Assembly (NCBI RefSeq): GCF_964204645.1
Contig: NC_134028.1
Span: 10,106,001 to 10,170,000, forward strand
Direction of reading: 5' to 3'
Length of the DNA: 64,000 nucleotides
Source: Tubulanus polymorphus
Taxonomy: Eukaryota > Animalia > Nemertea
The notes beneath the pieces were generated by a model. The model saw only the letters and a list, made by a program, of their open reading frames with translations, did no database searches and was not told the origin of the DNA. Position numbers and translations under genes: made by a program. This document shows positions 12-64,000 of this stretch, piece by piece (position 1 is the stretch's first letter; the number at the start of each line of letters is the position of its first letter).

Positions 12-308
12 ATGATATTTAACATTAATGATGTAATTACACAAATCAAAAATATTGCATTTTCTAATGAAACAACATTTAAGTATGAAAAAACAATAGA
101 TAAAGAAACTTTAAATGTAGAAAAGATTACTAATTTAATTAGAGAATCTTTAAGATTTTATGAATTAGATGAAGATTTTATCATCGATGATATTAAAAAA
201 ATAATAATTGAAATATATACAAATGAAACTAGTAATGAAATAAATGTTGAATTAATCATCACTAAGATAACTAAATATTTTGAAGATAGTAATTTTTTCG
301 ATAAATAA
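12..308 (+). CDS. Polinton hypothetical protein (5'-truncated by the window; homolog of 62233..62586)
   Basis: Near-identical to residues ~21-117 of the 117-aa ORF in copy C. Confidence 0.75.
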   Translation: MIFNINDVITQIKNIAFSNETTFKYEKTIDKETLNVEKITNLIRESLRFYELDEDFIIDDIKKIIIEIYTNETSNEINVELIITKITKYFEDSNFFDK

Positions 309-530
309 ATGAGTGATAATAAGTGGATAATAACCGGATTATACAATGGAGCATTACTATCAGTTGGAACTGTTGGTTCTTCAATGGTATTAAAAAAAGT
401 ATTTAAAATGGGAAGTGTTAATGTTGATAGATTTGATATAAATGATATTTTAAAATTAACATTAGCAGTTACTTTATCTTATTTAACTATTGATTATTTG
501 GAAAAACAAAAATATATTCCTCCCATATAA
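309..530 (+). CDS. Polinton small hydrophobic protein (73 aa)
   Basis: Intact, TAAATG start, near-identical to 62008..62229. Confidence 0.75.
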   Translation: MSDNKWIITGLYNGALLSVGTVGSSMVLKKVFKMGSVNVDRFDINDILKLTLAVTLSYLTIDYLEKQKYIPPI

Positions 531-554
531 ATGCATAATTTTTTTGCTAAATAA

Positions 555-977
555 ATGGCTTCTGCAATTATAACTATTATAGGATCGGCAATTGTTTACG
601 CTTTAGCATTTACTGGTGGCGGTTATTTATTTAGGCATATTGATAAAAATAGTTCATTAGGAGAACAAAGAAGACATAACTTAGCATTAGAGAAATACAA
701 TAAAGCAGCAGAAGAATACAGAGAAAAACGACAAAACTATATGGATTATATTAACAAGGAATTATATGATCAGAAGATTTCACATAGAGATTTTCAATCA
801 GTTGATGATGCAATGAGTTTATATAACGCGGTAACAAATAAAGAAAAATTACATCTATACAAACCTAAATTATCAGATTATTATACCCCAAGTAAAGAAC
901 AACAGAAATATGAAATAATTTGGATTTTAGGGGGAACAGTTATTGTTATATTTGTTGCTTATAAGTTTACTAATTAG
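555..977 (+). CDS. Polinton predicted membrane protein (140 aa; hydrophobic N- and C-termini, coiled coil)
   Basis: Intact, TAAATG start; homologs at 25432..25743 and 61560..61982. Confidence 0.8.
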   Translation: MASAIITIIGSAIVYALAFTGGGYLFRHIDKNSSLGEQRRHNLALEKYNKAAEEYREKRQNYMDYINKELYDQKISHRDFQSVDDAMSLYNAVTNKEKLHLYKPKLSDYYTPSKEQQKYEIIWILGGTVIVIFVAYKFTN

Positions 978-997
978 TAATTTTTTTTGCTAAATAA

Positions 998-1432
998 ATG
1001 GATGATAATATTGATAATATTGATATATTTCCTCATGATATAAATAAAACTAAATTAAAAATATATTTAGAAAAACAAATATTAGAATTTGAAAGTGATT
1101 TAAAAGTTAAAAAGAAAAAATATTTTAAAAGTAAAATTATATATTATTTGATTATAAGTGGTTCGGTTACAAGTAGTTCTGTAATAATATTTCTAGCAAT
1201 ATTCAGCCCATTTACACCTTTAGCTATATCAATTGGTGTATTAGGATTAAGTTCAAGTGTTTTAACTGGTATAAGTTCAAAATTAAATATAAAAAGTAAT
1301 AAAGAAAAAATTAAAACTAATATAAAAGAAATTAATAAATTAAAAAATACACTAGATTATATAATAAGTTTAAATGGCCATATAACAGTTGAAGAACAAG
1401 ATAAATTATTAAAAGAATTAATACATTATTAA
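998..1432 (+). CDS. Polinton two-TM coiled-coil protein (144 aa)
   Basis: Intact, TAAATG start, central hydrophobic hairpin; disrupted homologs at 25769..26199 and 61106..61540. Confidence 0.8.
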   Translation: MDDNIDNIDIFPHDINKTKLKIYLEKQILEFESDLKVKKKKYFKSKIIYYLIISGSVTSSSVIIFLAIFSPFTPLAISIGVLGLSSSVLTGISSKLNIKSNKEKIKTNIKEINKLKNTLDYIISLNGHITVEEQDKLLKELIHY

Positions 1433-1448
1433 TTTTTTAATTATATAA

Positions 1449-2837
1449 ATGGCAGATAGTTTTCCAAAATCTTTCCAATATAATAAACCAATTAAATATA
1501 ATATTCCTGCAATAGATTTTAATAAAGATATTACATATAGAAATGAAGTTTTAGATTCATTAACTAATTTAGAAATTTATGTTACTGAAACTAATAATTT
1601 TAATGCAAAGATGGAAAATATATTTCATGTATATTTAATTAATTTTAAAAAATTGAAAGATGAAAAACAATGGTTATTAAAATCTAATATGAAGTATTGG
1701 CAGAACCAATTAAATTTTGCAGTTTATTGTGCAACAACAGGATGTGTAATTAGTTGGAATGATCATTTGAATAATTCTAAATATAAATTAATTCAAAGTT
1801 TATTTAGATTTCATACATACTTTCAAATAAGAATAATATTAAATGAATTAGAGTGTGCTTTACCAGGATCTAGATATTTTAAAGAATTAGATAATAATAT
1901 TAATTTATCAAAGTTTTATAAAATTTGCAATGAATTTAATATAGATATAAATAATTCTGATTTTAGAACAAAAATTGGAACAATAAGATCACTTCCTTGC
2001 CCTAAAAAGATTGCAGAATATTGTGCACTTCCCATACCATCTAATAGCTTTTATAATATCTATAATAATAAATTAGGTTATGGTAAAATAGAAACTAAGG
2101 ATTTCGAAACATTAAATTTCAATAAATTACCGAAATTTTATGATCATTTAAAACAACACAACAATATTGGTTGGGTTTATTTCATTTTAAAAAATAGTGA
2201 AGGTTTTACTAAATCAGGTATAGAAAGAATAAATCAATCTATTAGAACTTATTTGATATGTATTCTAGGTGCGCAAGTTGAAACAAGATCCCAAATAATT
2301 GGAAATTTAAATACATCATTTGATACACAGAAACAATTCAAAGTATTATTTGAAGATTCAATTCATAATGATAAAAATAGATCGATTCCGGAAAACATTG
2401 TAAGATATCAAAATTATCTAGATAAATCACATATTAGATTAAATTATTGTATAGGCCCTAATCTATTTATTATTTCTAATGATTTAGTATTTAAGATGGG
2501 AAATATAATTGGTTATAATAATCTAATTAAAACTGCAACAATAAATAATTCATTTGGATTAAATGATATAAATAAAAAGATAATTACTGCTCCAAAATCA
2601 ATGGAAGGTGAAAAAAATAAAAAACACATTCAATCAACAGAAACTAAAACTAATAATATTAAATTAAATAATGATTCTAAAATAAAAGATTACAATACAT
2701 CAGAAAACATTAGAGCTGATAATATTCAACATGAAATAATTAAACTAAATGATGCTAATAAATCCCATGAAAATACTAAATTAGCTATAACTTGTATAGG
2801 AATTGTAATCGGAGGAATCTTATATTTTAAATTTTAA
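1449..2837 (+). CDS. Polinton conserved protein of unknown function (462 aa, C-terminal TM anchor)
   Basis: Intact; motif WQNQLNFAVYCATTGC; same length and highly similar to 26216..27604. Confidence 0.85.
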   Translation: MADSFPKSFQYNKPIKYNIPAIDFNKDITYRNEVLDSLTNLEIYVTETNNFNAKMENIFHVYLINFKKLKDEKQWLLKSNMKYWQNQLNFAVYCATTGCVISWNDHLNNSKYKLIQSLFRFHTYFQIRIILNELECALPGSRYFKELDNNINLSKFYKICNEFNIDINNSDFRTKIGTIRSLPCPKKIAEYCALPIPSNSFYNIYNNKLGYGKIETKDFETLNFNKLPKFYDHLKQHNNIGWVYFILKNSEGFTKSGIERINQSIRTYLICILGAQVETRSQIIGNLNTSFDTQKQFKVLFEDSIHNDKNRSIPENIVRYQNYLDKSHIRLNYCIGPNLFIISNDLVFKMGNIIGYNNLIKTATINNSFGLNDINKKIITAPKSMEGEKNKKHIQSTETKTNNIKLNNDSKIKDYNTSENIRADNIQHEIIKLNDANKSHENTKLAITCIGIVIGGILYFKF

Positions 2838-2847
2838 TTTTTTTATT

Positions 2848-4554
2848 ATGTTAATGGATGTAGAAGGTGGAGAAGATATTCCAATGGATCCTTTAGATGA
2901 ACCTGGTATAAGTGATGAACAACCACCTGATTTTGATGAAACAAGTTTTAGTAATGATGATAAAACAGAATATAATACTAATTTAGGTGAAGATGATGAT
3001 TATGATGATGAAACGCGTAAAGAATTTAAAGAATATATGACAGCTACCGAAAGGGAAGTTATTAGAACCGCAACATCTAGAAAGGATTTAATGAAAAGAT
3101 AAGTAAATACAACTGATCCTCTTATGAAATATCAATTAAAATTAATGAAAAATAGAGTAATATATACAATTGTTAACGCATTATTACCAAAAGATGTAAT
3201 AGATAAAGTTGACACAGAAGATATTGTAGATAAGATTTTAGAATATGACCCATTTTTCATGAATAATTTAGAATTTAAAAATGATTCATGGTATTATAAT
3301 GTTGAATTAAATAACAAAACTGCATCAATACAATTATCTAGAATTGGTCAAGAAAATATTTTTGAACCTGATATGTTAGCAAGATCTACAATTGAACATT
3401 CAAAAGGTGGCACAGAATTGTTCAGAATTATATGGAATGCACTCGATAGAATAAATGAAGAAGAACCAATTCCTAAAATTAATATTAACAAATATTCACC
3501 ATTTAAAAATCGAAATCCAAATCCTACTGATGTTGATCCAGAAATGGAAGAGTATGGAGATCGATTAGATAAATTAAGAACATCAACACCAGAAACATCG
3601 AGAAGAGATATTCAACAAATTAATAATGATTCAAGCCAATTACAATTAGGAAAACATTTAGATAACTTACTGGATACAATGAATTCATTTGAAGAAGATA
3701 TGATTAGTGTTTTAGATGCACCCGGTGCTGAAACTGGAATAAATCGAATACAATCTTTACTAGAAAAAGGATTATTTGATTTAACTGATGATGAATTAGA
3801 AGCATTTCCTGAACAAGCACGTAGAGAAATTAAAGGTATGCAAGAATCAGCTGGTGAAATTGCTAATATTAAGATGAGATTTTCTAAAATAACCATGTTA
3901 GAAAAAGAATTAACTAATGTAAATGAAGAATTAAAACAATTAGAATTAAATAGAGATCTTCAATTAATCGAGGAAGCTGATTATGAAAGCAGAAAGTTAG
4001 CTTTAGAAAAAGAAATAGATGATTTAAAATATAACAAAGAATTACAGGAAAAAGAAATAGATACATTATTAAAATCATATGATCTTAATCATATTAAAAA
4101 ATTAAAAGTTATTTTTAAAGATTTGTTGATAAAACCAGATTCTAAAATATCATTGAAAGATAGAATAAAATTATTATTTAAGTTAGAAGGTATAACAATT
4201 CTTTTAATTCTAACAGCTGTAACTATGTTATTTACAACAATTGGTTTAGCAATATCAAATGCTTTAAAATCTACTCCCACTCCCAATAAACCAGATAAAC
4301 CCCCAAATGATAATAATTCTATACAAGATAAAGTTAAAGATGGTTTAAAGAAATTAGCAAAATATTTATGGGAACTATCTAAAAAATCTGCTGCAGCATT
4401 GCCAGGAGTAATTGCATCAATTGTTGATTTTATATTGAAATCTGCAGGAAACATTATTAACTTTGCTGCTGAACATATTATTTTATTTTTAATTACAGTT
4501 GTAAGTGCAATTATTTTTGGTTTAGTAAATATGATAACAAAAAATATCAAGTAA
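2848..4554 (+). pseudogene. Polinton large coiled-coil/membrane protein (acidic N-terminus, C-terminal hydrophobic helices), one in-frame stop
   Basis: ORFs 2848..3102 and 3124..4554 share a frame, separated by TAA 3100-3102; C-terminal third shared with copies B and C. Confidence 0.8.
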
Positions 4555-4594
4555 ACATGATAAAAAATAGATAATTAATTTTTTTGTTAAATAA

Positions 4595-4972
4595 ATGAGT
4601 GGGAGTTATATCAATCCTTCAAAGAATCATAGAATATCTAATGCTATTAAAGCAGAAAGATCACATCATATAATTACTCATAACCCTTCTAATATTAATC
4701 CCGATGAAACTTTATATGTTAGAATCCCTCGATTAACACAAAATACTTTTTATGTTCCAAATAGTATTTATTTATCAGCCGATATAAAAGTAATCGGTAA
4801 TAATAATAATTATGTTGTTGATAATGTTGGAAGATATTTGATTAAAAAATTAACTATAAAGATTGGACCAGAAACAGTTTTCTCATTAGATGATTATAAT
4901 TTATTTATGCATTATAAAGATTTATGGTTAACTAAAGAAAATAGAAATAATATGATATTTCAAGGCATCCAA
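4595..4972 (+). pseudogene. Major capsid protein (double jelly-roll type), 3'-truncated
   Basis: Matches the N-terminus of 29097..30343 up to ...IFQGIQ, then runs into unrelated sequence. Confidence 0.75.
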
Positions 4973-8200: not shown

Positions 8201-9280
8201 ATGAATGCAGACATGCTTGTAAATAGCTGCATTTGTTAAAATCGAATTCTTCATTAAACTAATATCGCCATCCATAAAAAGAAGGAAATTTCGATTCATC
8301 GTAAAATCCAAAACCAATGACAATTTGTAAACTAATTTACTCCAATCTCGATTTTTATTTGTTAGACTATCTTCAGAGCTTAACTGAGTCACTCAAAATA
8401 CAACTATACCCCAAACTATAGGCTGAGAATAGAATTTTCCACTAGTTTCTCAGTGTGTCCATGTTGTCATGTATCACCGCATATCTTAAGTGGCTACTAA
8501 GTAAAAGTAGACGTTTAGGCTCAAATGTGCGATAGACATGTTCTTGGTTTCAGGGAACAATACATAGACATGGGGCCAGGCCCTCGTCCACTTTTCTGTA
8601 AAACCGTTATTGTCGTATTTCTGCATAGCGTTACATTCTGAAATTCTTCAACAGTTCGTGGGCTTAAGATTTTAACCTTCATTTTATACATTAGATATTC
8701 TTAGCCTCCTTGAATCTATTGTAATCGTTATTATCCTTTTTACATAAAACATGCCTGAAATTGTGAGCATATACCATTCCTAATTTCAACTAAGAAAGTG
8801 CTCAGAAAGCACCTAAATGCATCTAATTCTTCAAAGACCACACCCCTTTTGTGCCTTATTCACCTGTGGCCCTTCTCCAACAGATAGATTCTCGAACATT
8901 TATCTAAATTACTCAATGGCATTTATTTCAAGTCTGCCCCCCGCGATCATGCCACTCTCCAAAAGCATCTACTTTTCAGTTTGGATTTGCTTGCCAGATT
9001 CCCTGTTATAAATAGCGACATGTGCTTCATATTTGCAGTGATACGTGACAATATAAACAGTGTATAAACAGTAGTGCAAAATGTATGCATCCACTATAGT
9101 TTTCAGGGCAGTTAAAATCTAAAGATTCTGAATATGCTCCTTGAGGATGTGAAATATATGAGAGATAAAACTCTAACCGATAACCATCGAGCTAAATCTG
9201 TTTGTATAATGTGATAAGTTTTGAAGTTTTAAGATTAATCGAAATTGCCTTTATTTCATTGCAATAATTTAATGAAAATT

Positions 9281-9550
9281 CAATTATTATTTGAATATAT
9301 TTGATTATATGAATTTGTGTATTGTAAATAAATCAATTGGTCGCGGAGCGGAGCGGTAGCGAAGTGGAGCGACCAATTAAATACAATATGCTTTTTAAAT
9401 TATTGATATCTTAGAATAAATATTTAGTTTTAATATAAAATGCACACGGTTATGAAAATATATTATAGTTTTAAATTACTTTTAATGTTTTGTTTTTTAA
9501 TGAGCTCGACCGTTCGACCTTTGGTATGAAAGCCCATTACCCCTATTACT
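9281..9550. repeat. Orphan Polinton terminal repeat (right-end orientation, ends ...cccctattact)
   Basis: Matches ~36735..36984 of copy B, including the terminal CCCCTATTACT and the GC-rich hairpin tip. Confidence 0.9.
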
Positions 9551-18100: not shown

Positions 18101-20522
18101 ATGGAGTATGCAGAATTTATGAAGAGGGTTAGTTCCTTCTTGACTGTGGATGAAGACTATAGTGATTGTAGTAGGCCTAGTGTAAACCAGTCGGAGTATC
18201 TAGGTCGTTTAGAAAATAGAATTAAGGAACTGGAGGTCGAAGTTCAATCGCTTACCAAACGGAACTGGAAATCGACTGTAGTCGATAACTCGTTGAAATC
18301 GCATGATCCGTCGTTTCCGTCGTCAGTAAGAGATGATCGTGCGTATCCGTCTACAGTTAGACATGATCCGTCGTTTCCGTCATCAGTAAGAGATGATCGT
18401 GCGTATCCGTCTACAGTTAGACATGATCCGTCGTTTCCGTCGTCAGTAAGAGATGATCGTGCGTATCCGTCTACAGTTAGACATGATCCGTCGTTTCCAT
18501 CGTCAGTAAGAGATGATCGTGCGTATCCGTCTACAGTTAGACATGATCTGTCGTTTCCGTCGTCAGTAAGAGATGATCCGTTGTTTACGTCAGCACGAAA
18601 AGACGAACAGGTATATTCCTCTACAGCTGCCGAAAGGGGTTATACACCTGCCGCTCCAGTATCTAATGGAAACGCAGTTACGATTGTCAAGCCGCCATTC
18701 GAATCGACAGTAGCGGCAGGTACTACGCTTAGGCCGGAGGCCGTGTCCTTCACACCTGAATATGGTCATGTCAGTGTAAATCCATCATATAACCTGGAAA
18801 ACCTATTGTCCAGGCAGATAGAAACCACAATGGCCTTGACTTTACCACAAACTGAAATGCCCAAATTTGATGGCGATCCGTGTGAATTCTACAGTTTTAT
18901 GAGAGCATATGATACCCTGATAGATCGAAATACGTCTAATGATGGGACTAAGTTTTATCTCTTGCTACAGTGCACTACTGGAGATGCGAACGGACTTGTA
19001 AAAAGTTTTTGTTCAATGGAGTCGTCGAGCGGATTAAATAACGCGTTGTCAGCACTGAAGAAACAATACGGTCAGAGCTACAAGATCGCTTGCAGCTTTG
19101 TGGATAAGTTGGTCAGCGGACCACCCATAAAGGCGGAAGATAGCGCAGGAATGCAGAAATTGTCGGTCGTTGCGATGAGTTGCGTTAATACCCTTCGCGA
19201 TATTGGATATCTGTCCAAGGTTGAAAATCCGAAGACAATGCGGAAGCTGAGCGAAAGACTACCATATGATGCACGCAAACGCTGGCGTGTAACTGCAGAT
19301 CGGATCTCTGAGGAAGCGGGTCGAAAAATTAGCTTCCAAGATGTGGTTTCATTTATTACCGAGGAGGCGCGTGTGTTAAATCACCCCGTTTTTGGGAAAG
19401 TTTTTAGTGATCGTAAAGTGGAAAAACCTCCACAAAGTTATGAAAGGGGAAATACCCTTAAAAAATCTATTCATGCCGTAAAGCATGAAAGTTCAGGTCC
19501 AGTTTCGAATTTTGTCAAATGTCAATATTGTAGTAACAGTGACCACTGGACAGATAAGTGTGATATTTTCAAAGCAAAATCTGTTGAAGAACGGAGGGAT
19601 TATGTTGTAAATAAAGGTTTTTGTTGGTTGTGCCTTAAGCCTAATCATAGAGCTAAACAGTGTCGTAGCAAGTTATCGTGTTTAAAATGTAGTAAGTCTC
19701 ATAATGCATTGTAACACTTTGAATCGGAGAGGCCTCCTAAATACGAAGAGGCTGATAGGTCTGCTAAGAGCGGGTTTGTCACTAGTAGTACCTTAGATTC
19801 CGTTATTGGTCTGCCAATCGTACCCGTTAAAGTTATCGGTGACAAAGTTATTGAAACTTATGCATTCCTTGATAATGGTTCTACAGCATCATTCTGTACT
19901 GAAAGTCTTGTTAAGGGTTTAGGAATTTCTGGAGTTAAAACTGAATTTAAGCTGTGTACGTTAGGTAAAGATGAGAAAATCATTAGTACTAAGGTAGACT
20001 TAACTGTGTCGGACCTTAACGGGCAATCCAGCGTGCCCCTCCGTGATGTAATATCGGTTTCGAATCTGCCCATATCAGTCGACGACATAGCAAAACAGGT
20101 AGACATTGATAAGTGGCCACATTTGTCTGATGTAAAGGTTGAACTTATAAATTCTGGTGTTGAGATTCTAATAGGAAACGACAATTGTGAAGCACTTGAA
20201 CCGCTTGATGTGCGTAAAGGTAGAGGTAAAGGTCCGATAGCGGTTAAGACAGTTTTCGGTTGGACAATAAATGGCCCGCTTAAACGTTGTATGAGTATTA
20301 ATACAAAGGAAAACTGTAAACGTGTAGGACCTATTAAAACTGACCAACGGTTGAACGATTTGTTCCAAGATTATTGTAATCGCGAGTTTAATGACGACGA
20401 AGTTTGTTGTGATAAGACTAGGTCTGTAAATGACCAGAAAGCTATAGGCTTATTCGAAAATTCTGTAGTATTGTCTAGTGGTCATTATGAGATCGGCCTT
20501 CCATGGAGGTCATGCCCACCTA
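18101..20522 (+). pseudogene. BEL1 gag-protease portion
   Basis: PKFDGDP gag motif, three Cys/His knuckles (CQYC..H..C, CWLC..H..C, CLKC..H), stop at 19712, protease YAFLDNGSTASF; cut at GLPWRSCPP by the Polinton. Confidence 0.9.
18301..18580 (+). repeat. In-frame 60-bp tandem repeat (~4.6 copies; HDPSFPSSVRDDRAYPSTVR) in BEL1 gag
   Basis: Visible as near-identical consecutive 60-nt lines. Confidence 0.95.
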
Positions 20523-21110
20523 AGTAATAGGGGTAATAGGCTTTCAAATCAAAGGTCGAATGGTCGAGCTCATTAAAAAACAAAATATTAAAAGTAATTT
20601 AAAACTATAATATATTTTCATAACCGTGTGCATTTCATATTATAACTAAATATTTATTCTAAGATATTAATAATTTTAATTTTAAAAGCATATTGTATTA
20701 AATCAATTGGTCCCTCCGCTTCACTACCGCTCCGCTCCGCGACCAATTGATTTATTACAATACACAAATTCATAATCAAATATATTTTAATAATAATAAT
20801 TATTCTATTATTCAACTGAAATGCACACGGTTATGAAAATATATTATAGTTTTAAATTACTTTTAATATTTTGTTTTTTAATGAGCTCGACCATTCAACC
20901 TTTAACCTGAAAGCCTATTACCCCTATTACTCTTAAAATAATCATATACATGAATAACATTTAAATTGACAGATTATTCAATATAAAAGTGTGAGCTCTT
21001 ATGGAATATATAGATAGATATATTTACAACATTATTTTAATATTCATATTTGTATGAGTTAGATTTTTAAACATTAAAAGTGTTAGTAAAGTGTGATTGA
21101 AATAATACAT
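20523..21110. repeat. Left TIR of Polinton copy B (588 bp; outer 409 bp form a fold-back)
   Basis: Reverse complement of 36426..36984. Confidence 0.95.
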
Positions 21111-21164
21111 GATATAAATCATTGAACTTCTAAAATCAATTTTAATAAAAATTTTAGTATTAAA

Positions 21165-24100: not shown

Positions 24101-25191
24101 AATTATCAAATTATCAAAAAAGAATTAAACCCGAAAATCATATTCATACAGAAAAGTTAACGGTAACTCAAGAAGATAAATATAATTATGTAGTACATTA
24201 TAGAATGTTAAAGTTTTATCTAAAACAAGGAATGATTCTAAAAAAAGTACATAGATATATTTCATTTAGTAAATCTAAGTGGTTAGAAAAATATATAGAA
24301 TTTAACACCAAACAGAGAACTGAAGCTAAAACTGATTTCGAAAAAGATTTCTTCAAGTTAATGAATAATGCATTCTATGGTAAGACTTGTGAAAATATTA
24401 GAAATAGAAATGATATTGAGTTAGTTAGTAATGGTAAAAGGATAAGGCATTTACAATCATATCCTAAGTTTTTAGGTAACAGAATATTTGATGAAAATTT
24501 AGCCGCAGTTAAAATCAGAAGAACATCAATGAAATTTAATAAACCAATCTATGTTGGAGCATCAGTTTTAGAATAATCAAAATTACTAATGTATGAATTC
24601 TATTATAATGTATTACAACCACTTTTTGGAGAAAAACATATAGAAATACTATATTTTGATACTGACAGTTACATATTAAAGATAAAAACTGATAACATAA
24701 CTGATGATTTAAAAACATTAAAACATCATTTTGATTTCAGTAACTATCCTAAAAATCATGAATTGTTTAGCAATGATTATAAAAAAGTTCCCGGTAAATT
24801 CAAAGATGAATTATGTGGTGAAGAAATGATTGAATTCATCGGTATTAGATCTAAAATGTATTCATATAAAACTAAAGAACATGAAGCTAAAAAGTTGAAA
24901 GGAATAACTAAAAGTGTAGTAGAAAAGAATATTCATTTCAAAGATTACATCAATTGTATATTCAATGAAGAAGTTAGAAAACATAAGATGAGATGTTTAA
25001 GATCTGAAGATCATGAAATGTTTATTGAAGAAATTGAAAAGATAAGTCTAAACCAATTTGATGATAAAAGATATATTTTAGATGATGGAATTCATACAGT
25101 TGCTTATGGTTGTAATTTAGATGAATACTTAAAATTTAAAAGAGAAGAAACAAAAGAGAACGAGATAATGAAAAGAATTCTAACGTGTTAA
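21165..25191 (+). pseudogene. Protein-primed family B DNA polymerase (pPolB) with N-terminal C2H2 fingers and an endonuclease-VII-like His/Cys insert
   Basis: One frame from 21165 with stops at 21498, 22377 and 22569, frameshift ~23685, stop 24574. Motifs DHDHLNG..GAAH..CNL, FHNLSGYD, YLKSDV, YIDANYLYG, KLMNNAFYGK, YFDTDS. Confidence 0.93.
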
Positions 25192-25220
25192 TCAAATTTT
25201 AATAAAAATATGTATTATAA

Positions 25221-25743: not shown

Positions 25744-25768
25744 TTATTTTTTTTTTTTTGTTAAATAA

Positions 25769-36984: not shown

Positions 36985-36990
36985 CACCTA

Positions 36991-53257: not shown

Positions 53258-54542
53258 CTTTAGACATAGGACATGCAACTTTAGACATAGGACATCAAAG
53301 TTGAAAACTTTTTTTAATGAAACAATGGATAAATTCAATATAATTTATACTTCATTGATCCAATTATGAGAAAATAATTTCATTTCTTAAATTTGCACTT
53401 TAATTTCAAAGGCCTCCATCAATGTATGTTTGAAGCTATATAAAGCTCCGATATCGGGGCCCGCTAGTGACGTTCAACTACCACCTAACAACAGCTCTTC
53501 TGTATATGCAACGGTTCTACGCATGTACGAGGATGCACACCGCCAGAAGCTGTTACACTGGAATCAGGCATCAGTGATTAGAATAGCACTGGTAGCAAAG
53601 GACATTCCGAAACAATTCCGAATGCACTTACCACTGCGAGTGATCGATACCGATAAAAATCAAGACTACTCTTGAGACTGGGCTAAACAGTTACCACAAA
53701 CATGCCTGGACTTGATGAAAATGTCGATCCGTCACCACGACACGATGACGGAATACTTTCGCAAGAAGGTCAACTCCATCATGGCCGAATTCCTGAAGAT
53801 GTCCGGTTCATCGCAGCTACTACTAAACACGGCTGAAGCCGAGGTGGAATCGAAGAATATTGTACTGCAAAGAAATCAACTATAGGCCTATCATCATCAC
53901 CAAATCCGGTACAAACAGTATTTAACACACCACCTCCACCTCTACCAGTTAGGACTACACCAGTTAGGACTACAGTTACATCACAACTGCAGTCATCTAC
54001 AAAAGTAACCCCAGTTCATTCACTCCAAGGTATTTGAATTGAAATGGTCTTTAATTTTAGCTTGTTTCGATACATGTAAAATGAATGAATGAATATATAA
54101 TTTAATTGAAGCCTAAAATAAAAGGTTCAGCTTTACATTGTGATGAAAGTGCACAAACCTGAAAGTAATTGGAAGATGTGGGTTTCAGATCAGAGGGCGA
54201 GAGGGCGAAACACCACTCATCACCAAAAGTAATAATTCAATTGAGTATGAGACACCACTCATCACAGCTAGGCTCTAGTGAGAACGGACGATTGCTCTGT
54301 GATACACATATACAGTGAGTGCGCGTAACAACATCTGCGCGTGGATTGAACGATACAGTGAGTCTCTACTGAGAACGGTTATTAACGCGTGTGCTATTAC
54401 TGTAGTACAGTGATTGCGTGTCAACTGTACCCAGATAAATAGATGCTGTGAGGCTTGGGTGAGAACGGTTAATAGCGTGTTTGTTATATACAAGGGGAAG
54501 TAATCCCCACTCATCACCACAAATAATTTGTTTTCCTTATAA

Positions 54543-54848
54543 ATGGGAGATAGAAAAGCATTCTTAGCAACAATAAATAACAGAATAAAACCAGCAAAAA
54601 AACAATTTGAAATAAAAAAGTTAGTTGATGTTACAAAAGAAATTGAACATAAAATATTGAAATTAGAAAAGATAAAAACTAAATATGGAGAGAAAGTATC
54701 AGCGAATTTAAGCTACTGTAATGTTAGCACATCGCGAGAATTTAAAGTGTTTTTACCTGATAAATGGGTTTCATTGAGTACAGAGGAATTAAAAGATTTA
54801 GAAGGATTTAAAATAATCTATCATGGGAAAAATAATGGATATAAATAA
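54543..54848 (+). CDS. Small basic Polinton protein (TKYG...VFLP motif)
   Basis: TAAATG start; distant homolog of 25221..25431. Confidence 0.65.
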   Translation: MGDRKAFLATINNRIKPAKKQFEIKKLVDVTKEIEHKILKLEKIKTKYGEKVSANLSYCNVSTSREFKVFLPDKWVSLSTEELKDLEGFKIIYHGKNNGYK

Positions 54849-55050
54849 TAAAGATGGCCATCATGATTTAGAAATTGTTGATTAAATTTAAAAAAATAAA
54901 TTAATAAAAATAATGAATATCTAGAATCCGAAATGACTTATCTGGACAATTTAATTGCTCCGCATAGATGGTACCATAAACGGCACCCACACAGTGATAG
55001 ACAAAAGTAGTGAGATATTCAATTATTTTTTTTGCTTTTTTTCTAAAATA

Positions 55051-55419
55051 TTAATCCATTTTTTTAATTATCAATTTTGGAATTTCAGAAGTACTTTCAT
55101 TTTTGATAGCAGTTGGTTCAGAATTACTAATATCATGAATTTTATTTGATTTCTTATACCAATTACACCCAATCAAAATGAATACAATTACAAATCCAAC
55201 TGTAAAATATAAATATTTATCAAATATTCTATTATCAGAAGGAGTAGAAATAACAATATTTTCACCATTTTTATTAACATTTTTATTACTTATTTTTTCT
55301 TTTACAGCTTTTTTATATTCTTGTGATTTAATTCCTAATTGCCGAGACCATTTAATTTGCTTCTGAGTTCTCGGTTTTTTCTTCACAGTTAATTCCTTCA
55401 CTTCTTTCACCTCGCTCAT
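55051..55419 (-). CDS. Basic single-TM protein (122 aa)
   Basis: Homolog of 33224..33592. Confidence 0.75.
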   Translation of the reverse strand: MSEVKEVKELTVKKKPRTQKQIKWSRQLGIKSQEYKKAVKEKISNKNVNKNGENIVISTPSDNRIFDKYLYFTVGFVIVFILIGCNWYKKSNKIHDISNSEPTAIKNESTSEIPKLIIKKMD

Positions 55420-55956
55420 TTATTATAGAAATATTTTTACTTTCAATATTTGAAATGTTATAACCCCAGTTGATAATAATGTCATAAATCCGCCTAATTG
55501 AAATGATAAATATCCAATCCATTTATTTAATTCAGTCATAACTAAATAGTCATTTTATGAATCGGAATATAATCTATTTTCATCTTCAATTGGTAGTATA
55601 TAATTACATAATTTACCATAACCTTTTACTACATTTTCTGATATCGCGTCATTAATTCTAGCTGTTCTCGCGGCTTCATAAATCTTAAATAATCTAATAA
55701 TTTCAACTGATTTCATTGTATCTAATTCATTATAAGTTAAATTTTTATCGACAAAATTTTTACATTTTCCAGATGCTATTAATATTTCTAATTGATGTTT
55801 GCAATAAAGATAATATTCATAATTATTATTTGTTGTAACATTATTTAAAGCATCATCATCTGGAATTAATTTGTTTTCTGTTATTCCTAAATCATCTAAA
55901 GTTTTTTCAATTGGAACATCACCATTTTTAGATTTTATTTTCTTTTCACCTACCAT
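55420..55956 (-). pseudogene. Homolog of the 202-aa protein, frameshifted ~55557
   Basis: YEYYLYCKH.LE and NDYLVMTEL motifs shared with 33585..34193. Confidence 0.75.
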
Positions 55957-55987
55957 TTATATAACAAAAAAATTAGTTGTGATGTTG

Positions 55988-56228
55988 CAACTAGAATTCA
56001 ACTAGAATGTAACTAGAATTCAACTAGATTAACAAGCTAGTTGAAATATTGTTATTTTTGTTTATTTCTTGTTAAATCTAGTTGATTTTTGTTCCAACTA
56101 CCAATAACTAGAATTCAACTAGAATGTAACTAGAATTAAACTAGATTAACAAGCTAGTTACCATATTGTTAAAATCTAGTTGATTTTTGTTACAAATACC
56201 AATAACTAGAATTCAACTAGATTAACAA
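55988..56228. repeat. Intergenic array of ~11-bp AACTAGAAT(TC/GT) units in three blocks
   Basis: Blocks start ~55988, ~56107 and ~56204. Confidence 0.9.
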
Positions 56229-56239
56229 ACTAATTGAAT

Positions 56240-56848
56240 TTAAATAAATTCATATTTAAATGGGTGTTGTAATCTAAATAGTAATTTTGATCTTTTAATA
56301 TTTTTCAACTTATCCATATATTCATTATGTAAATCATGTGGAATAATATCATTTTCCTCAAGTGCATTTTTCATTGATTTTCTATCTTTATTGTAGAATA
56401 AAACTAGAAATCTTATATTCTCCCTAAAGTCTTTAACAATTAAATTATATTTTTGATTTAAAACCCATGTTGTTATCCCAAAATGTCTCCCAGAGAAAGC
56501 TACATAACATAACTCACTTTCTCTAACTTTTGAATCATGTAAATTTGCGCAATCATCTATGATAAATAATGTATTTGATCCTTTATAAATATCAATTGCT
56601 ATTTTAATACAATTATTTAAATTTTCTTTTACTGTTTTAGGATCTAATATAATAAATTTATTATTTCTAGTAATATTTCTATCATAAGTTTGATTAAATT
56701 CATACGTTGGGCAAAATAATACTATATTATCAAAATAGTTTTCATAAACAGTTTCTAATAAATTCAATATAAAATAAGTTTTTCCACAATTTGTTACGCC
56801 AGATATTAACATATTATGAGGCTCAAATATAAATAATTCTTTATTCAT
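56240..56848 (-). CDS. A32/FtsK-like DNA packaging ATPase, intact
   Basis: GVTNCGKT, FIIDD, SGRH and NQ motifs. Confidence 0.92.
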   Translation of the reverse strand: MNKELFIFEPHNMLISGVTNCGKTYFILNLLETVYENYFDNIVLFCPTYEFNQTYDRNITRNNKFIILDPKTVKENLNNCIKIAIDIYKGSNTLFIIDDCANLHDSKVRESELCYVAFSGRHFGITTWVLNQKYNLIVKDFRENIRFLVLFYNKDRKSMKNALEENDIIPHDLHNEYMDKLKNIKRSKLLFRLQHPFKYEFI

Positions 56849-57976
56849 TTATATATTTTTAATTTTACTTGATAATATCCATTCATTGAATTTATCTGAC
56901 CATCCAACCCATTTTACTAAAGAATATTTTTTTCTTTTAATAGTTTTTGTTTTTAATACTTTTTCAATTTTATATTCTTGTTCTAGATTTTCAGTAGTTA
57001 AACTTAATTCTTCTTCGTAAAAGTAGCCATCAACTTCTTCACCATCTAAATCTTCTAATTTATAGACATATGGTTTTGTTGTTATTACCTTTTTTATTTT
57101 ATATATTTCTCTAGTAAAATTTCGATCGTATCCTTTATCAAATATCTTTTTATACTTAGAAATTCTAACATTTTGACCAACTTTAAATTTAGGTTCACCA
57201 AAATCATCTACAAGAAATGCTCCATATAAATTATTCCAAACAATTTCAGCATTTTCAGGTTTTCTAGCATCAATAGGTTTCATTCCAATAGAAGAATGAT
57301 AAGAATTATTATATCCTTCTATCAATTTTGGTAAAACATCAATCCATTTAAAAGTATTATTTGCTGTAAAATATTTCCACATTCTTGTTCTTAATGTTCT
57401 ATTAAATCGTTCAACAACTGCTGCTTTTTTATCTGATTTTGTTGAAAAATATTTAATATTATGATTATCTAAGAGTTCATGAACAAGTGAATTATCAAAC
57501 TCTTTTCCATCATCAAATTGTATTTTTTCTGGTTTTAGTTTATCATCCAAAAAAAATTTTCTTAAAACATTTGATGTTTGTACAGCATATTTTCTATAAA
57601 GTGGGAAACTCCATACATAACGACTAAAAATATCAATTATATTCAATAACCACCAATAATCATTATTATCTTTCTTAACATTTTTCATATCAATTAAATC
57701 TCCTTGCTACTGTTGATCTACATAACTTACCATAGTTTTACGAGTTTTATATTTTCTAACAATTTTTTTATGTGTTGTATATGTTGGTTGTTCTAACATA
57801 AATTCATTTATATCTTTATATTTAACTATATTTTGTGGGATTATCTCATCTAATTTATCTTGTTTTACTTTACGCCATATATTTTTAGTAGAAGAATAAG
57901 CAACCGAACTCTCAGGGTTGTAATATAAATTTCTTAAATATTTTTCTTTAGTATTAGGAGTTTTTTTACCACCCAT
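56849..57976 (-). pseudogene. rve integrase with chromodomain, one in-frame stop
   Basis: QQ*QGDL (TAG at 57707-57709 replacing W), QFDDGKEF, ERFNRTLR, VKWVGWSDKFNEWI. Confidence 0.92.
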
Positions 57977-58006
57977 TTATATATCCTTAATTTTAACTTT
58001 ATATTT

Positions 58007-59207
58007 CTAATATTGAATACTATCTAATTGTGAATTTACAATATTTAATTGTGCGTCAGATATAATATAAATATGCATTTTAAAATTTTTGTCCCCTCTT
58101 TTCTTCGCCATGAATAATTGTATTCCATCTTTAGTGTTCTGTAGTTTTTTCCCAGAACCATGTAATGAATTATCCTCTGTTGTTCTAAAATCTAACCATA
58201 ATGCATATTTATTACCGGTATAATAATCAATTTGATTAATATTACAATTTTCAGATGATTTTACTTTTTCATTCATAAAATGTTTTCTAATTTCTGGCCA
58301 TTGATCAATCATTCTCATTCCTTGACAAAATATTTTATTTGCTATTCCTGCGATAGTTATTTCAACTTTTGTTATTTCAGGATTATAATAATTATCTACC
58401 TTTATTGCGCCATTAGAATATGTTGCAATAGTAAAAAATATTAATATACCTTTAATAGATCTTCTTGGGAAGTTAATATTCCCATTAATTATTTCATCAT
58501 TTGCATTCATAGTTACAGTTTTAAATTTATCAATATAATCATATAATAATGAAAATCCTTGATTGTATTGAGTTTGAATTGTGCTAGCAATATTTTCATT
58601 AGTTACTGTGTTATATTCTAAACATATATTCGATAATTTATAACCCATATCTTTAACAACGCTAGATAATACAATTTCATTTACAGGAGCAAATGTTATC
58701 TCAAATATAATATCTTCTTGAATTGCATATTTATATAAAGGTGCATTGTTATTTATCAATTCAAAGTCTAATGGAATTTTATATTTGCTTCCATAAATCT
58801 TTTTAATCAAATTATCTGTGGCACGAGTTACTATTGCGTCATTAGCTCCTGATCTTAATTTATTATGGTTTTCCGATTGAATACCCTGAAATATCATGTT
58901 ATTTCTATTTTCTTTAGTTAACCATAAATCTTTATAATGCATAAATAAATTATAATCATCTAATGAGAAAACTGTTTCTGGACCAATCTTTATAATTAAT
59001 TTTTTAATCAAATATCTCCCAACATTATCGACAACATAATAATTATCATGACCAGTTACTTTTATATCGGCTGATAAATAAATACTGTTTGGAACATAAA
59101 AAGTATTTTGTGTTAATCTAGGAATTCTAACATATAAAGTTTCATCATGCTTTAATAGCATTAGATATTCTAGAAATCTTAGAAGGACTTATATAACTCC
59201 CACTCAT
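58007..59207 (-). pseudogene. Major capsid protein; 5' deletion near 59147, remaining ~380 codons open
   Basis: ATG 59207 (TAAATG); lacks the ERSHHIITHNPSNINP segment; otherwise near-identical to copy B. Confidence 0.75.
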
Positions 59208-59226
59208 TTATTTAACAAATAATTAA

Positions 59227-60588
59227 TTATTTATTTTTGATCATGTTTACTAAACCAAAAATAATAGCACTTACAACTGTAATTAAAAATAAAATAATAT
59301 GTTCAGCAAAAAAGTTAAGAATATTCCCAGCAGATTTCAATATAAAACCAACAATTGATGCAATAACTCCTGGCAATGCTGCAGCAGATTTTTTAGATAG
59401 TTCCCATAAATATTTTGCTAATTTCTTTAAACCATCCTTAACTTTATCTTGTATAGAATTATTATCATTCGGGGGTTTATCCGGTTTATTGGGAGTAGGA
59501 GTAGATTTCAAAGCATTTGATATTGCTAAACCAATTGTTGTAAATAACATAGTTACAGCTGTTAGAATTGAAAGAATTGTTATTCCTTCTAATTTAAATA
59601 ATAACTTTATTCTATCTTTTAATGATATTTCAGAATTTGGTTTAATCAACAAATCTTTAAAAATAACTTTTAATCTATTAATATTATAATCATATGATTT
59701 TAACAATAATTTAATTTCTTCTTTTTGTAATTCTATGTTATATTCTAAATCATCTTTTTCTTTTTCTAAACGTAATTCATTTTGCCTATATTCTATTTCA
59801 TCAATTACTTGATGATCTAAATCAGACTTTAATTGTTCTATTTCTTTATTTTTATCAGTTAATTCTTTTTCTAAAGTTCTAATTTTAAAATCTCTTATAC
59901 TTTTATCATGCGCAATTTTATTAGATGCAAGTCTTATACTAATAATTTCTCTAATTGCTTTATCAGAAAATATATCTAAATCTCCTAATTCTTGATCTGT
60001 TGCATCAATTAATCCATTAGGTAAAAGTTTTTCAATTGTAACTTTATTTGATTTAAGTTTACTATTTTTGGAAGTTATATTCTGTTCAGAAGTTGTTTCT
60101 GTTTCTGATTTCTTTTTGATTATTCCAAATAATTCATTAATTCTTTGTTTAAATACATCTATATTATCATCTATTTCTTTTTGTGTAACATCAGTTATTT
60201 CATTACTATTACTTATTATTTTAATTCTATCTGGTTTTAATTTTTCTAAAGTTGATTCTGATAATATTTTATTTTTATTATTTTTATTTATAAATGATAT
60301 CAATATAATAATCACCTTTCAAACGATAATAACATTTACCATTATCTAAAAATTTTAATTGATCTGCTAAAAGTCCAACGTCTTCATCATTTATATTAAG
60401 TTTAGATTTTTCAATTAAATCTTCTAATTTAGGTATTTTGTTTAAATTATCTAAATCTTGTTTTACTAAATCTGGGTCTAAATTTTCAGGATTTAATTGT
60501 GATTCAGCATTTTTTATATAATCAGGCATATTCAAATTATTATTATATTCTGGCTCATTACCATCATTAAAACTTGTTTCATTAAAAC
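59227..60588 (-). pseudogene. Large coiled-coil/membrane protein, 5'-deleted and frameshifted (~60290)
   Basis: C-terminus shared with copies A and B; middle shared with B. Confidence 0.8.
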
Positions 60589-61089
60589 TTAATCTATATT
60601 AAATTCATTACAAATTTTATAAAACTTTGATAAATTAATATTATTATCTAATTCTTTAAAATATCTTGATCCTGGTAAAGCGCACTCTAATTCATTTAAT
60701 ATTATTCTGATTTGAAAGTATGTATGAAATCTAAATAAACTTTGAATTAATTTATATTTAGAATTATTCAAATGATCATTCCAACTAATTCCACAACCTG
60801 TTGTTGCGCAATAAACAGCAAAATTTAATTGGTTCTGCCAATACTTCATATTAGATTTTAATAACCATTGTTTTTCATCTTTCAATTTTTTAAAATTAAT
60901 TAAATATACATGAAATATATTTTCCATCGTTGCATTAAAATTATTAGTTTCAGTAACATAAATTTCTAAATTAGTTAATGAATCTAAAACTTCATTTCTA
61001 TATGTAATATCTTTATTAAAATCTATTGCTGGAATATTATATTTAATTGATTTATCATATTGGAAAGCTTTTGGAAAACTATCTACCAT
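60589..61089 (-). pseudogene. 462-aa protein, truncated at residue 166 by an internal deletion
   Basis: Matches the N-terminus of 1449..2837, then joins the next gene. Confidence 0.85.
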
Positions 61090-61105
61090 TTATTTAATAA
61101 AACAA

Positions 61106-61540
61106 TTAATAATTTATTAATTCTTTTAATAATTTATCTTGTTCTTCAACTGTTATATGGCCATTTAAACTTATTATATAATCTAGTGTGTTCTTTAATT
61201 TATTAATTTCTTTTATATTAGTTTTAATTTTTTCTTTATTACTTTTTATATTTAATTTTGAACTTATACCGGTTAAAACACTTGAACTTAATCCTAACAC
61301 ACCAATTGATATAGCTAAAGGTGTTAATGGGCTGAATATTGCTAAAAATGTTATTACAGAACTAATTGTAACCGAACCACTTATAATCAAATAATATATA
61401 ATTTTACTTTTTAAATATTTTTTCTTTTTTATCTTTAAGTCACTTTCAAATTCTTATATTTGTTTTTCTAAATATATTTTTAATTTAGTTTTATTTATAT
61501 CATGAGGAATGATATCAATACTATCAACTTTATCTTCCAT
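61106..61540 (-). pseudogene. Two-TM coiled-coil protein with an in-frame stop
   Basis: Homolog of 998..1432; EKQI*EF. Confidence 0.8.
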
Positions 61541-61559
61541 TTATTTAGAAAAAAAATTA

Positions 61560-61982
61560 CTAATTAGTAAATTTATATGCTACAAATATAACAATAACAG
61601 TTCCACCTAAAATCCATATTATTTCATATTTCTGTTGTTCTTTACTTGGGGTATAATAATCTGATAATTTAGGTTTGTATAGATGTAATTTTTCTTTATT
61701 GGTTACTGCGTTATATAAACTCATTGCATCATCAACTGATTGAAAATCTCTATGTGAAATCTTCTGATCATATAATTCTTTATTGATGTAATCCATATAG
61801 TTTTATCTCTTTTCTCTATATTCTTCTGCAGCTTTATTGTATTTCTCTAACGCTAAGTTATGTCTTCTTTGTTCTCCTAATGAACTATTTTTATCAATAT
61901 GTTTAAATAAATAACCACCACCAGTAAATGCTAAAGCGTTAACAATTGCCGATCCTATAATTGTTATAATTGCAGAAGCCAT
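61560..61982 (-). pseudogene. 140-aa membrane protein, disrupted near 61805
   Basis: Homolog of 555..977; ATG 61982, reading broken just before MDYINK. Confidence 0.8.
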
Positions 61983-62007
61983 TTATTAAGTAAAAGAAAT
62001 TATGCAT

Positions 62008-62229
62008 TTATATGGGAGGAATATATTTTTGTTTTTCCAAATAATCAATAGTTAAATTAGATAAAGTAACTGCTAACGTTAATTTTAAAATATCATTTAT
62101 ATCAAATCTATCAACATTAACACTTCCCATTTTGAATACTTTTTTTAATACCATTGAATAACCAACAGTTCCAACTGATAGTAATGCTCCATTATATAAT
62201 CCAGTTATTATCCACTTATTATCACTCAT
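62008..62229 (-). CDS. Small hydrophobic protein (73 aa)
   Basis: Homolog of 309..530. Confidence 0.75.
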   Translation of the reverse strand: MSDNKWIITGLYNGALLSVGTVGYSMVLKKVFKMGSVNVDRFDINDILKLTLAVTLSNLTIDYLEKQKYIPPI

Positions 62230-62232
62230 TTA

Positions 62233-62586
62233 TTAATCAAAAAAATTACTATCTTCAAAATATTTAGTTATCTTAGTGATGATTAATTCAACAGTTATTT
62301 TATTACTAGTTTCATTTGTATATATTTCAATTATTATTTTTCTAATATCATCAATGATAAAATCTTCATCTAATTCATAAAATCTTAAAGATTCTCTAAT
62401 TAAATTAGTAATCTTTTCTACATTTAAAGTTTCTTTATCTATTGTTGTTTTATACTCAAATGTTGTTTCATTAGAAAATGCAATATTTTTAATATGTGTA
62501 ATTACATCATTAATGTTAAATCTCATTTCTTTCTCACGTTTAACATCAAATCCAAAACATACACTCGGTCCAACAGTTATATTCAT
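62233..62586 (-). CDS. Polinton hypothetical protein (117 aa)
   Basis: Intact; homolog of 12..308. Confidence 0.75.
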   Translation of the reverse strand: MNITVGPSVCFGFDVKREKEMRFNINDVITHIKNIAFSNETTFEYKTTIDKETLNVEKITNLIRESLRFYELDEDFIIDDIRKIIIEIYTNETSNKITVELIITKITKYFEDSNFFD

Positions 62587-62602
62587 TTATATAGTGAAAA
62601 AA

Positions 62603-63361
62603 TTACTCTTTACATCTTATAACTAATTCATAAATTACAGGAAAGTTATTCAAATCAATTAAATAACCATTATGATTTCTTATTTCTAATTTAAAATTAT
62701 TGAAATGTGGAATACAAGGTTTGAAATCACATTCAGTTAAATTATAATTTATTTGAGTTCCAAATTGTTTGACATTTTTTAATGGTAAAATATTTAATAA
62801 ACCAGAATTACAAATTGTATCTTTAGTTGCTTCAAATGTTTTTGTTGGGTCAATCAAATTGCAATAAATATAAAAGTGTGTAAAAGGTATTAAGTTTGAT
62901 CTACCTTCTGCGTGTGCTGTAACAATATTTGGGTTAATTCCTAACAGTTTAGCTAAAGGTTTTCTTACTGTAAATTTAAATTGTTCGTTATTATCTAACC
63001 TAATCTTTATTTTATTAGAACTATCACTTTTTAAAATTCTAATATTAAATTTAGAATCACTTCCTAATTTAGCTCGAGCTTTTCTATTAATTTCTTGTGC
63101 TAATGTATCTAAATTATATAATCCTGGTTTTAAATATATAAAATACCATTCATTCATTTTTTTGTAAAAGATTGAAAAAATTAAATTTTCTAGACTTTTA
63201 TCCGATATATTGTAAAATGAGTTACATAAACTTATATTTACTAATTTTAAATCAACACAATTCTTAAATTCTCTATCTAATTGTACTAGTAAATTATGTG
63301 ATTTATAATTTGTAAGTTTTCTAGAATCTACAAATATTCTGTATTCTTTTAATTCTACCAT
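62603..63361 (-). CDS. Minor capsid (penton, single jelly-roll) protein
   Basis: N-terminal IFVDSR, PGLYN, LLG, FYIYCNLI and C-terminal LEIRNHNGYLIDLN pattern typical of Polinton/NCLDV pentons. Confidence 0.75.
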   Translation of the reverse strand: MVELKEYRIFVDSRKLTNYKSHNLLVQLDREFKNCVDLKLVNISLCNSFYNISDKSLENLIFSIFYKKMNEWYFIYLKPGLYNLDTLAQEINRKARAKLGSDSKFNIRILKSDSSNKIKIRLDNNEQFKFTVRKPLAKLLGINPNIVTAHAEGRSNLIPFTHFYIYCNLIDPTKTFEATKDTICNSGLLNILPLKNVKQFGTQINYNLTECDFKPCIPHFNNFKLEIRNHNGYLIDLNNFPVIYELVIRCKE

Positions 63362-63429
63362 TATTTATAACATAAAAAAATTACCAATCATCACTAAAAA
63401 TTAATTTTAATAAAATTTTTCCTAAATCA

Positions 63430-64000
63430 ATGGATGAGAAGATAGCATGCGAAATTTGTGGTGAACTTCTAAGAAAAAGTAATATGGCTCGACATATGAA
63501 AAAACATGATTAAAATTATAAACCCCCCAAAAATAAACTGCCCAAAATGTAATAAATTATTCTAAAGAAATTATGTTAAAAAACATTCAGAGAAGTGTAG
63601 AATTAATGACGCAACGGCTAATGTTGATAGTAATGAAAGTAATAGTAATTCTGCCGAAGTTGAACCTGAAGTTATTTGGAAAAGACCTTTCTTATTCTAT
63701 GATAAGGATAATATAAAAGATCATTTCTGTGAGCCTTGTCGAATAAAATATAACGCTGAAAATATAGAAGATTGGGAGAATCATCAATTTCGTAAAGTAC
63801 ATATAGATGAAATTTCTAATAAATTTGAAACTGAATTTAATGAAAGAAAAAATAATTTATTAGAAAAAATAAAATATGAGAAAACGTTACCAGATCATAA
63901 AGAAACAGTTGAAAAGTTAGAAAAACAATAAAATGAATTAACAAGAAAAACATATTATTGTAAATATTGTAAATTGATTATTACAACAAGTAATTCAAAT
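63430..64000 (+). pseudogene. Multi-C2H2-finger ORF with stops; possibly the start of the copy C pPolB
   Basis: CEIC..RHMKKH, CEPC..H....H, YCKYC; the copy B pPolB also begins with such fingers. Confidence 0.5.

Follow-up and report, generated by a model that had tools for sequence, protein, structure and literature searches.

A 64,000-nucleotide stretch of the nemertean Tubulanus polymorphus genome (contig NC_134028.1; hereafter the window) carries three AT-rich copies (21–28% GC) of one Maverick/Polinton amid BEL/Pao retrotransposons, and nearly every gene of this element opens with TAAATG. Our analysis of the sequence suggests that this rve-integrating Polinton lineage is probably a satellite that depends on a helper, namely a co-infecting, poxvirus-like cytoplasmic virus whose RNA polymerase transcribes it. 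Direct support comes from the anatomy of the promoters and from their being conserved within one capsid branch, as well as from the many integration sites and the lack of any detected RNA polymerase of the element's own.

TAAATG was present at 26 of the 31 Polinton starts in the window; all 26 positions named in the first-pass annotation carry it exactly, each ATG opening an element gene. The five exceptions are, as claimed there, near-variants: TAAAATG at the pPolB N terminus (21165), TAAATAATG at 63361, TAAGATG at the integrase (33217), TTAATG at 2854 and TAAATCAATG at 63430. The three window copies are not independent, because their structural modules are 93–96% alike (blastn). Counted per distinct gene, TAAATG occurs in at least half of the copies for 14 of 16 genes (binomial p = 2.6e-10, with the null set generously at 15%). 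At non-start ATGs, TAA precedes 16/184 in copy A, 32/658 in copy B and 16/328 in copy C, that is 5–9%, and 11/467 in the BEL region; for the first ATGs of short non-gene frames the corresponding element counts are 16/116, 30/437 and 17/228 (7–14%). The BEL open reading frames (ORFs), said earlier to lack this context, indeed have TAAATG at none of seven starts.

Judged from its surroundings, TAAATG is part of a positioned promoter: every gene has an AT-rich core of about 20 bp and then a TAAA(T) initiator that runs into the start codon. We curated 79 starts, taken from the window and from ten related loci (the start at 2854 in copy A being left out), and compared them with 130 non-start occurrences of TAAATG in the same DNA. 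Both marks of a late promoter were found, namely TAAAT at the start codon, with TAAATG at 74 of the 79 starts, and a T about 10 nt further upstream, with T at -12 in 69 of those 74 compared with 48 of 130 controls (Fisher p = 1e-16) and at -13 in 55 of 74 compared with 46 of 130. The pPolB start of copy C was entered in this set as 63432 instead of 63430 and is not TAAATG either way. A occupied -18 in 57 of 74 starts and 54 of 130 controls, and G+C was nearly absent between -18 and -12 of the starts. The cores come in two flavours: T-runs head the genes for the major capsid protein (MCP), g2–g6 and g202, and A-runs head those for the packaging ATPase (AAA in 3 of 5 cores, T-runs in none), g269, g122 and some pPolB and HNH starts. 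Flavour mostly tracks the gene within a close group and switches for some genes in distant loci. The T-runs that the first-pass annotation placed 6–10 nt upstream of many starts are real, but they lie at about -16 to -10 from the ATG and mark only one of the two flavours; their sequence is more like a late-promoter core than an early terminator.

The T-run and A-run flavours resemble published vaccinia late and intermediate promoters, respectively. Vaccinia intermediate and late promoters share with those of the element a TAAAT overlapping the ATG, a T about 10 nt upstream, an A-rich core 15–19 nt upstream and a TAAAAT variant (PMC11980589, PMC12917281, PMC12722222, PMC5294985). The late class has TAAATG and a T ten bases upstream of TAAAT among other Ts, the intermediate class is A-rich 15–19 bases upstream and then has a T, and the vaccinia A32 ATPase gene (A32L) is intermediate, with membrane proteins late (PMC11980589). 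TAAA is contacted directly by the poxviral polymerase in a structure (PMC12917281), and the TAAAAT of our pPolB start equals the G8R intermediate initiator, of a kind that yields non-templated poly(A) leaders (PMC12722222). A fish poxvirus and an entomopoxvirus likewise use TAAATG (PMC4542343, PMC3061580). Unlike in vaccinia, both flavours here share the T at -12 and a TAA at -19 to -17, no early class is visible and no RNA polymerase was detected.

The signal is confined to part of the Polinton diversity. Among 83 loci retrieved with an MCP alignment, 13 (L001–L013, 20–44% GC) have TAAATG at 51 of 58 ORFs of at least 100 amino acids, compared with 0 of 12 long ORFs in the AT-rich sister loci L015, L016, L021 and L034. 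With starts placed by homology, TAAATG was found at 36 of 42 in the branch and at 5 of 243 in sister lineages with the same genes, the 243 having been placed automatically, some wrongly or antisense; 199 were kept on the basis of gene family and second codon. A quick MCP tree groups the TAAATG rows as one branch with a Shimodaira–Hasegawa-like approximate likelihood ratio (SH-aLRT) support of 93, below the tool's star level; L014 also falls inside it, with its TAAATG four bases upstream of the ATG. Head-to-head TAAATG gene pairs only 19–28 nt apart occur in L001, L009, L010 and L011. T stands at -3 in 88% of starts in the branch, whereas sister starts have a purine there in 179 of 199; the T is consistent with an mRNA in which As make up a new 5' end. 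Trans-splicing was considered and rejected, with AG in the last 8 nt at only 3 of 42 starts.

The sister lineages (L015–L083) instead have TATA within -14 to -1 at 112 of 199 starts, compared with 17 of 199 within -28 to -15 and a shuffle mean of 30.5 (maximum 48), a count that overstates independence because the rows are closely related. These starts span MCP, g2, g3, g4, g6, g202, ATPase and integrase genes. In sequence the signal resembles the late initiator of African swine fever virus, TA(+1)TA with short untranslated regions (UTRs) (PMC7163114). A broader and distinctly more tentative idea is that the whole capsid lineage of animal Polintons might consist of endogenous virophage-like satellites, in which the promoter dialect of each sub-lineage matches it to an order of helper of its own: a poxvirus TAAATG intermediate-to-late cascade here, and an asfarvirus-like TATA 4–14 nt before a Kozak ATG in the sisters. 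Such elements would be a record of undiscovered poxvirus-like and asfarvirus-like invertebrate viruses, and possibly an inherited defence. Two sister-lineage Polintons (L081 and L083) lie in a bin labelled bacterial, likely as eukaryotic contamination.

The element bearing these promoters is laid out in the window as follows.

1..4972, + strand: structural module of Polinton copy A, incomplete at the window start and ending prematurely inside the MCP gene (blastn 93–96% to copies B and C; weak Capsid_N match)
289..4600, + strand: promoters of copy A, T-run with TAAATG at 309, 555, 998, 1449 and 4595, TTAATG at 2854
9253..9550, + strand: right terminal inverted repeat (TIR) remnant, probably of copy A, matching the copy B TIR and ending CCCCTATTACT
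20517..20522, + strand: left 6-bp target-site duplication (TSD) of copy B, CACCTA
20523..36984, + strand: Polinton copy B, complete, 16,462 bp, from TIRs, TSD, ORF map and Pfam; the insertion lies in BEL-derived sequence
20523..21110, + strand: left TIR of copy B, beginning AGTAATAG, 94% to the right TIR
21145..25191, + strand: A-run promoter with TAAAATG, then the protein-primed DNA polymerase B gene (pPolB) in several pieces (DNA_pol_B_2 E = 1.5e-6 at 22911–23765, over the cut-off)
25201..25445, + strand: A-run promoter, TAAATG and a small soluble gene, of the g101 family by inspection, cut by a deletion (loose read ends 25424/25432)
25749..28658, + strand: three T-run promoters with TAAATG (25769, 26216, 27621) and the membrane-type genes g4, g5 and g6, with hydrophobic segments
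29077..30343, + strand: T-run promoter, TAAATG and the double-jelly-roll MCP gene, broken (structure model; Foldseek)
30356..31185, + strand: A-run promoter, TAAATG and g269, zinc-finger-like
31526..32159, - strand: A-run-like promoter, TAAATG and the A32-type packaging ATPase, frameshifted (Pox_A32 E = 1.2e-6)
32132..33237, - strand: rve integrase with chromodomain, start TAAGATG (rve E = 1.8e-9)
33224..34213, - strand: g122 (A-run) and g202 (T-run), each with TAAATG
34570..35198, - strand: A-run promoter, TAAATG and an HNH/endonuclease-VII-like gene, broken (phrog_1035 E = 8e-4)
36426..36984, - strand: right TIR of copy B
36985..36990, + strand: right 6-bp TSD of copy B, CACCTA
54523..64000, - strand: Polinton copy C, in reverse orientation, partial and mosaic, with 11 TAAATG starts
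63361..63432: head-to-head starts in copy C, a putative penton (63361, - strand) and a pPolB-like zinc-finger gene (ATG 63430, + strand), 68 nt apart, both TAAA-type variants

With pPolB, an rve integrase, TIRs, a 6-bp TSD, a double-jelly-roll MCP and an A32 ATPase, the element is a Polinton (Polintoviricetes). All three window copies are broken relics: A and C are partial, and in B stops and frameshifts disrupt pPolB, MCP, ATPase, HNH and g4. Copy C is 86–96% identical to B in the structural module and 72–76% in the integrase/ATPase module (54523–57976 compared with 31526–34213), and has a different end. In one raw DNA run with the same species label, read depth over copy B was mostly 450–890 compared with 12–16 in the flanks, some 40-fold, and 1168 reads exit its right end into mixed flanking sequence; the family therefore comprises tens of copies at many sites. 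A 0.05 share in a marine metagenome is not taken as a sign of habitat. Intergenic gaps, described in the first-pass annotation as 0–40 bp, are often that short, although some exceed 40 bp.

The MCP family model (predicted local distance difference test score, pLDDT, 83) matched iridovirus and Paramecium bursaria chlorella virus 1 (PBCV-1) MCPs at a Foldseek E of about 1e-15, with the mavirus MCP ranked lower (E = 8e-11), all at about 10% identity. A bivalve protein (38%) is among the few named matches of the MCP and, together with the BEL/Pao neighbours, points to an animal host. The copy C ATPase matches Pox_A32 at E = 1.3e-12. The name penton for the gene at 63361 (g252) has weak backing, a profile match to PBCV-1 P1v1 at E = 0.07. 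The g5 gene (1449–2837 in copy A) encodes a conserved 460-amino-acid protein with invariant Q87, C94, H122, N149, C160 and E162 and a C-terminal hydrophobic helix; a confident model of it (predicted template modelling score 0.74) had no fold match in BFVD or a wide PDB search, nor a PDB profile match. No RNA polymerase family was found by Pfam among 54 window ORFs, complete copy B included, or 24 ORFs of relatives, and no Pfam protease match among the ORFs of copy B or L003, although a divergent or broken protease could escape such a search. The MCP and integrase had no relatives in the viral_contigs search. The relative L003 encodes a deoxynucleoside kinase (10343–10981, - strand; dNK E = 1.7e-31) under its own T-run TAAATG promoter; the gene is absent from complete copy B and is not diagnostic of a donor.

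Putting these elements together, we propose that the helper polymerase would read TAAA once helper DNA replication begins and initiate in the A-run, where slippage would add a 5' poly(A) leader and so remove the unfavourable T at -3 from the message. A-run cores would drive packaging and DNA-handling genes first, in an intermediate-like phase, and T-run cores the capsid and membrane genes later, in a late-like one. pPolB would then replicate the linear genome, virions would be assembled at helper factories and the integrase would insert new copies. The scheme has a gap, shared with mavirus, at the first contact of a nuclear integrated copy with a cytoplasmic helper polymerase.

The sequence TTTTTNT is rare in the coding strands of the window element (2 compared with 12.8 ± 3.0 expected) and of the TAAATG clade (11 compared with 48.0 ± 5.8), with no depletion in sister loci (70 compared with 56.6), and interrupted T-runs are more depleted (ratio 0.2–0.3) than five Ts followed by a non-T (0.65–0.7). 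A test of AATAAA was uninformative, showing no depletion in element genes (60 compared with 61.6) or the BEL control (7 compared with 5.6).

Several observations weigh against a poxvirus-like helper. Plain T5 runs (18 compared with 34) and A6 runs (32 compared with 48) are depleted as well, some TTTTTNT depletion is also seen in the giant-virus record G004 (8 compared with 18) and in AT-rich sister loci (4 compared with 8.7), and TTTTTNT is the vaccinia early terminator, which genes with postreplicative promoters would not be expected to avoid; the depletion thus backs a pox-like machinery only loosely. The match between promoter class and function is imperfect: g122 has a hydrophobic segment yet an A-run core, the g101, HNH, penton and pPolB genes switch flavour, MCP and g3/g4 have A-runs in distant loci, and the vaccinia scaffold gene D13L is intermediate, not late (PMC11980589). 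No early-promoter consensus was found upstream of any gene, barring one A-run with one mismatch, and no gene of clear poxvirus origin was found in the element. The curated starts are related rows, not independent ones. Promoter-pattern scans of viral contigs yielded no poxvirus core region as a positive control, and TAAATG is not specific to poxviruses, as 42 of 100 ORFs begin with it in six giant-virus records other than poxviruses. Of the original proposal of a poxvirus-like polymerase, then, the positioned pox-type promoter, its conservation in one capsid branch, the failure to detect an RNA polymerase in complete copy B and the mavirus precedent hold up; a poxvirus in particular as the helper is more tentative, given that iridovirus-like giant viruses use TAAATG at many starts too, and so are the proposed inducibility and defensive role of the element.

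The best-surviving alternative, which we regard as unlikely, keeps the satellite lifestyle and exchanges the helper for a nucleocytovirus other than a poxvirus, such as an iridovirus-like one from the Pimascovirales, whose polymerase starts at an A-rich TAAA beside the ATG. The six records (G001 6/22, G002 8/14, G003 12/30, G004 7/14, L125 5/8 and L138 4/12 ORFs) were picked by motif in the pattern scans of viral contigs; the MCPs of G001 and G003 best match a grouper iridovirus MCP (E = 1e-47 and 5e-54), that of G002 itself starts with TAAATG, and ranavirus polymerase promoters are reported to contain a TAAAT motif (PMC5294985). These records nevertheless lack the fixed T at -12 (18/42, the Polinton branch having 42/45), use AAAATG alongside TAAATG and, in five of six cases, show no clear TTTTTNT depletion. 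The T-run pattern scan moreover matched both terminal repeats of a chordopoxvirus-like record (L095:5001–5022 and L111:620–641), 22 nt identical to the promoter at 55956 in the window, a match that was selected by pattern. In these uncultured giant-virus records (L114, L118, L125, L138, L156 and L160, G001–G004 among them), two with iridovirus-like MCPs, 27–62% of ORFs start with TAAATG.

More improbable still is an autonomous, nuclear element whose compact AT-rich promoters would be read by a host enzyme, RNA polymerase II (Pol II) or another, aided by some factor that the element encodes; the pox likeness would then be convergent or a legacy of an ancestor that once needed a helper. Integration by the element does happen in the nucleus, g5, g269, g202 and g1 have no assigned function, and contigs of one run of unknown kind, which cover only 33853–35869 and were not used as evidence, could reflect host-driven transcription. 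A TATAAA abutting the ATG, however, would make Pol II start downstream of that ATG, past the start codon, and head-to-head gaps of 19–28 nt are too small for two Pol II cores. The T at -3 is anti-Kozak, the scarcity of AG noted above leaves no splice acceptor, and a relic would not be expected to keep the motif over a GC range of 20–44% and across deeply diverged proteins, as is seen here. The remaining explanation, stop–start coupling on a polycistronic RNA or chance in AT-rich DNA (the element is about 24% GC), has next to no probability and is refuted as a general cause: of the 26 window starts only two, 309 and 56848, have a TAA that ends the gene before them (a third such stop lies at L003:8470), so that coupling is not the cause, no long open frame precedes 24 of 26 window starts and 46 of 49 locus starts, and the motif heads divergently oriented genes too, is present in 40–44% GC relatives and is absent from equally AT-rich sister loci.

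The element has counterparts among known satellites. Like the mavirus and EMALE04 provirophages of Cafeteria (Maveriviricetes), it has an rve integrase, pPolB and TIR-bounded integrated copies (PMC10945749); all genes of those elements are proposed to use a helper promoter, and element types differ in motif, implying different helpers (PMC10945749). Unlike them, it likely has an animal host rather than a flagellate, a pox-type TAAATG rather than the late motif of Cafeteria roenbergensis virus (CroV), and apparently a different capsid lineage. The earlier label of virophage may describe its lifestyle, not membership of Maveriviricetes. Reactivation and protection have been demonstrated for mavirus; for this element, an antiviral benefit to the host is only an analogy to mavirus. 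A giant virus can reactivate algal Polinton-like viruses (PLVs) (10.1101/2025.10.09.676808).

Four entomopoxvirus-associated PLVs (AHEV_PLV1/2, CBEV_PLV1 and Ca_PLV1) are likewise Polinton-like elements linked to a poxvirus in an animal host, but have an adenovirus-type protease and no rve integrase, whereas ours has rve and no detected protease (PMC11296320, Barth et al. 2024); the word promoter does not occur in the available text and supplement of that paper. With Mavericks/Polintons described as 'adintoviruses' the element shares pPolB, an rve integrase with chromodomain, an A32/FtsK ATPase, a double-jelly-roll capsid, TIRs and a 6-bp TSD (PMC8502044, Starrett et al. 2021). It differs in its several membrane-type genes, its uniform pox-type promoters and the failure to detect an adenain in complete copy B; the available part of the adintovirus paper has no matches for promoter, helper or cytoplasm (PMC8502044), and an egovirus preprint has no promoter data. 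The helper-promoter mechanism (mavirus) and entomopoxvirus-associated PLVs are thus already known, and a pox-type promoter signal in Polintons was not found in the literature: searches returned no paper on TAAATG in animal Polintons, with most subscription papers and bioRxiv supplements outside their coverage.

The yeast cytoplasmic virus-like elements pGKL are linear pPolB-type elements, for which we know of neither integration nor a capsid. They too have poxvirus-related promoters and poly(A) leaders (PMC12722222). They encode their own RNA polymerase, whereas none was detected here.

It is debated whether the Mavericks/Polintons of animals live as autonomous transposons, as autonomous viruses or as satellites of larger viruses, and a uniform helper-type promoter makes the question testable. 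Our interpretation predicts that this host group harbours a poxvirus-like virus not seen so far, and the initiator switch between sister lineages with the same genes suggests that helper range may be readable from integrated sequence. If reactivation and interference were shown, the mavirus type of inherited antiviral system would extend from protists to animals.

Other features of these loci are recorded here. Two-helix membrane proteins like g4 in several relatives (L009:2348, L011:267, L048:1172, L058:1202, L069:1838 and L081:5995) begin with PSAP and YPxL-like motifs, which the g4 of the window lacks and which we take to resemble late domains that recruit ESCRT. The position of g101-like genes differs between copy B, copy C and L003, and every one of them has a promoter to itself. 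Short tandem repeat blocks lie in the right ends of copies B (35304–35674) and C (55989–56269) and may be replication or packaging signals. BEL/Pao retrotransposons are metazoan; here they form nested elements from 17604 to 52758, with copy B inside the nest, resembling a transposon graveyard. Repeats of the nest pair 17732 with 52470 (98%), 40251 with 51989 (96%) and 44932 with 50801 (100%), the last around an intact ORF of 1810 amino acids.

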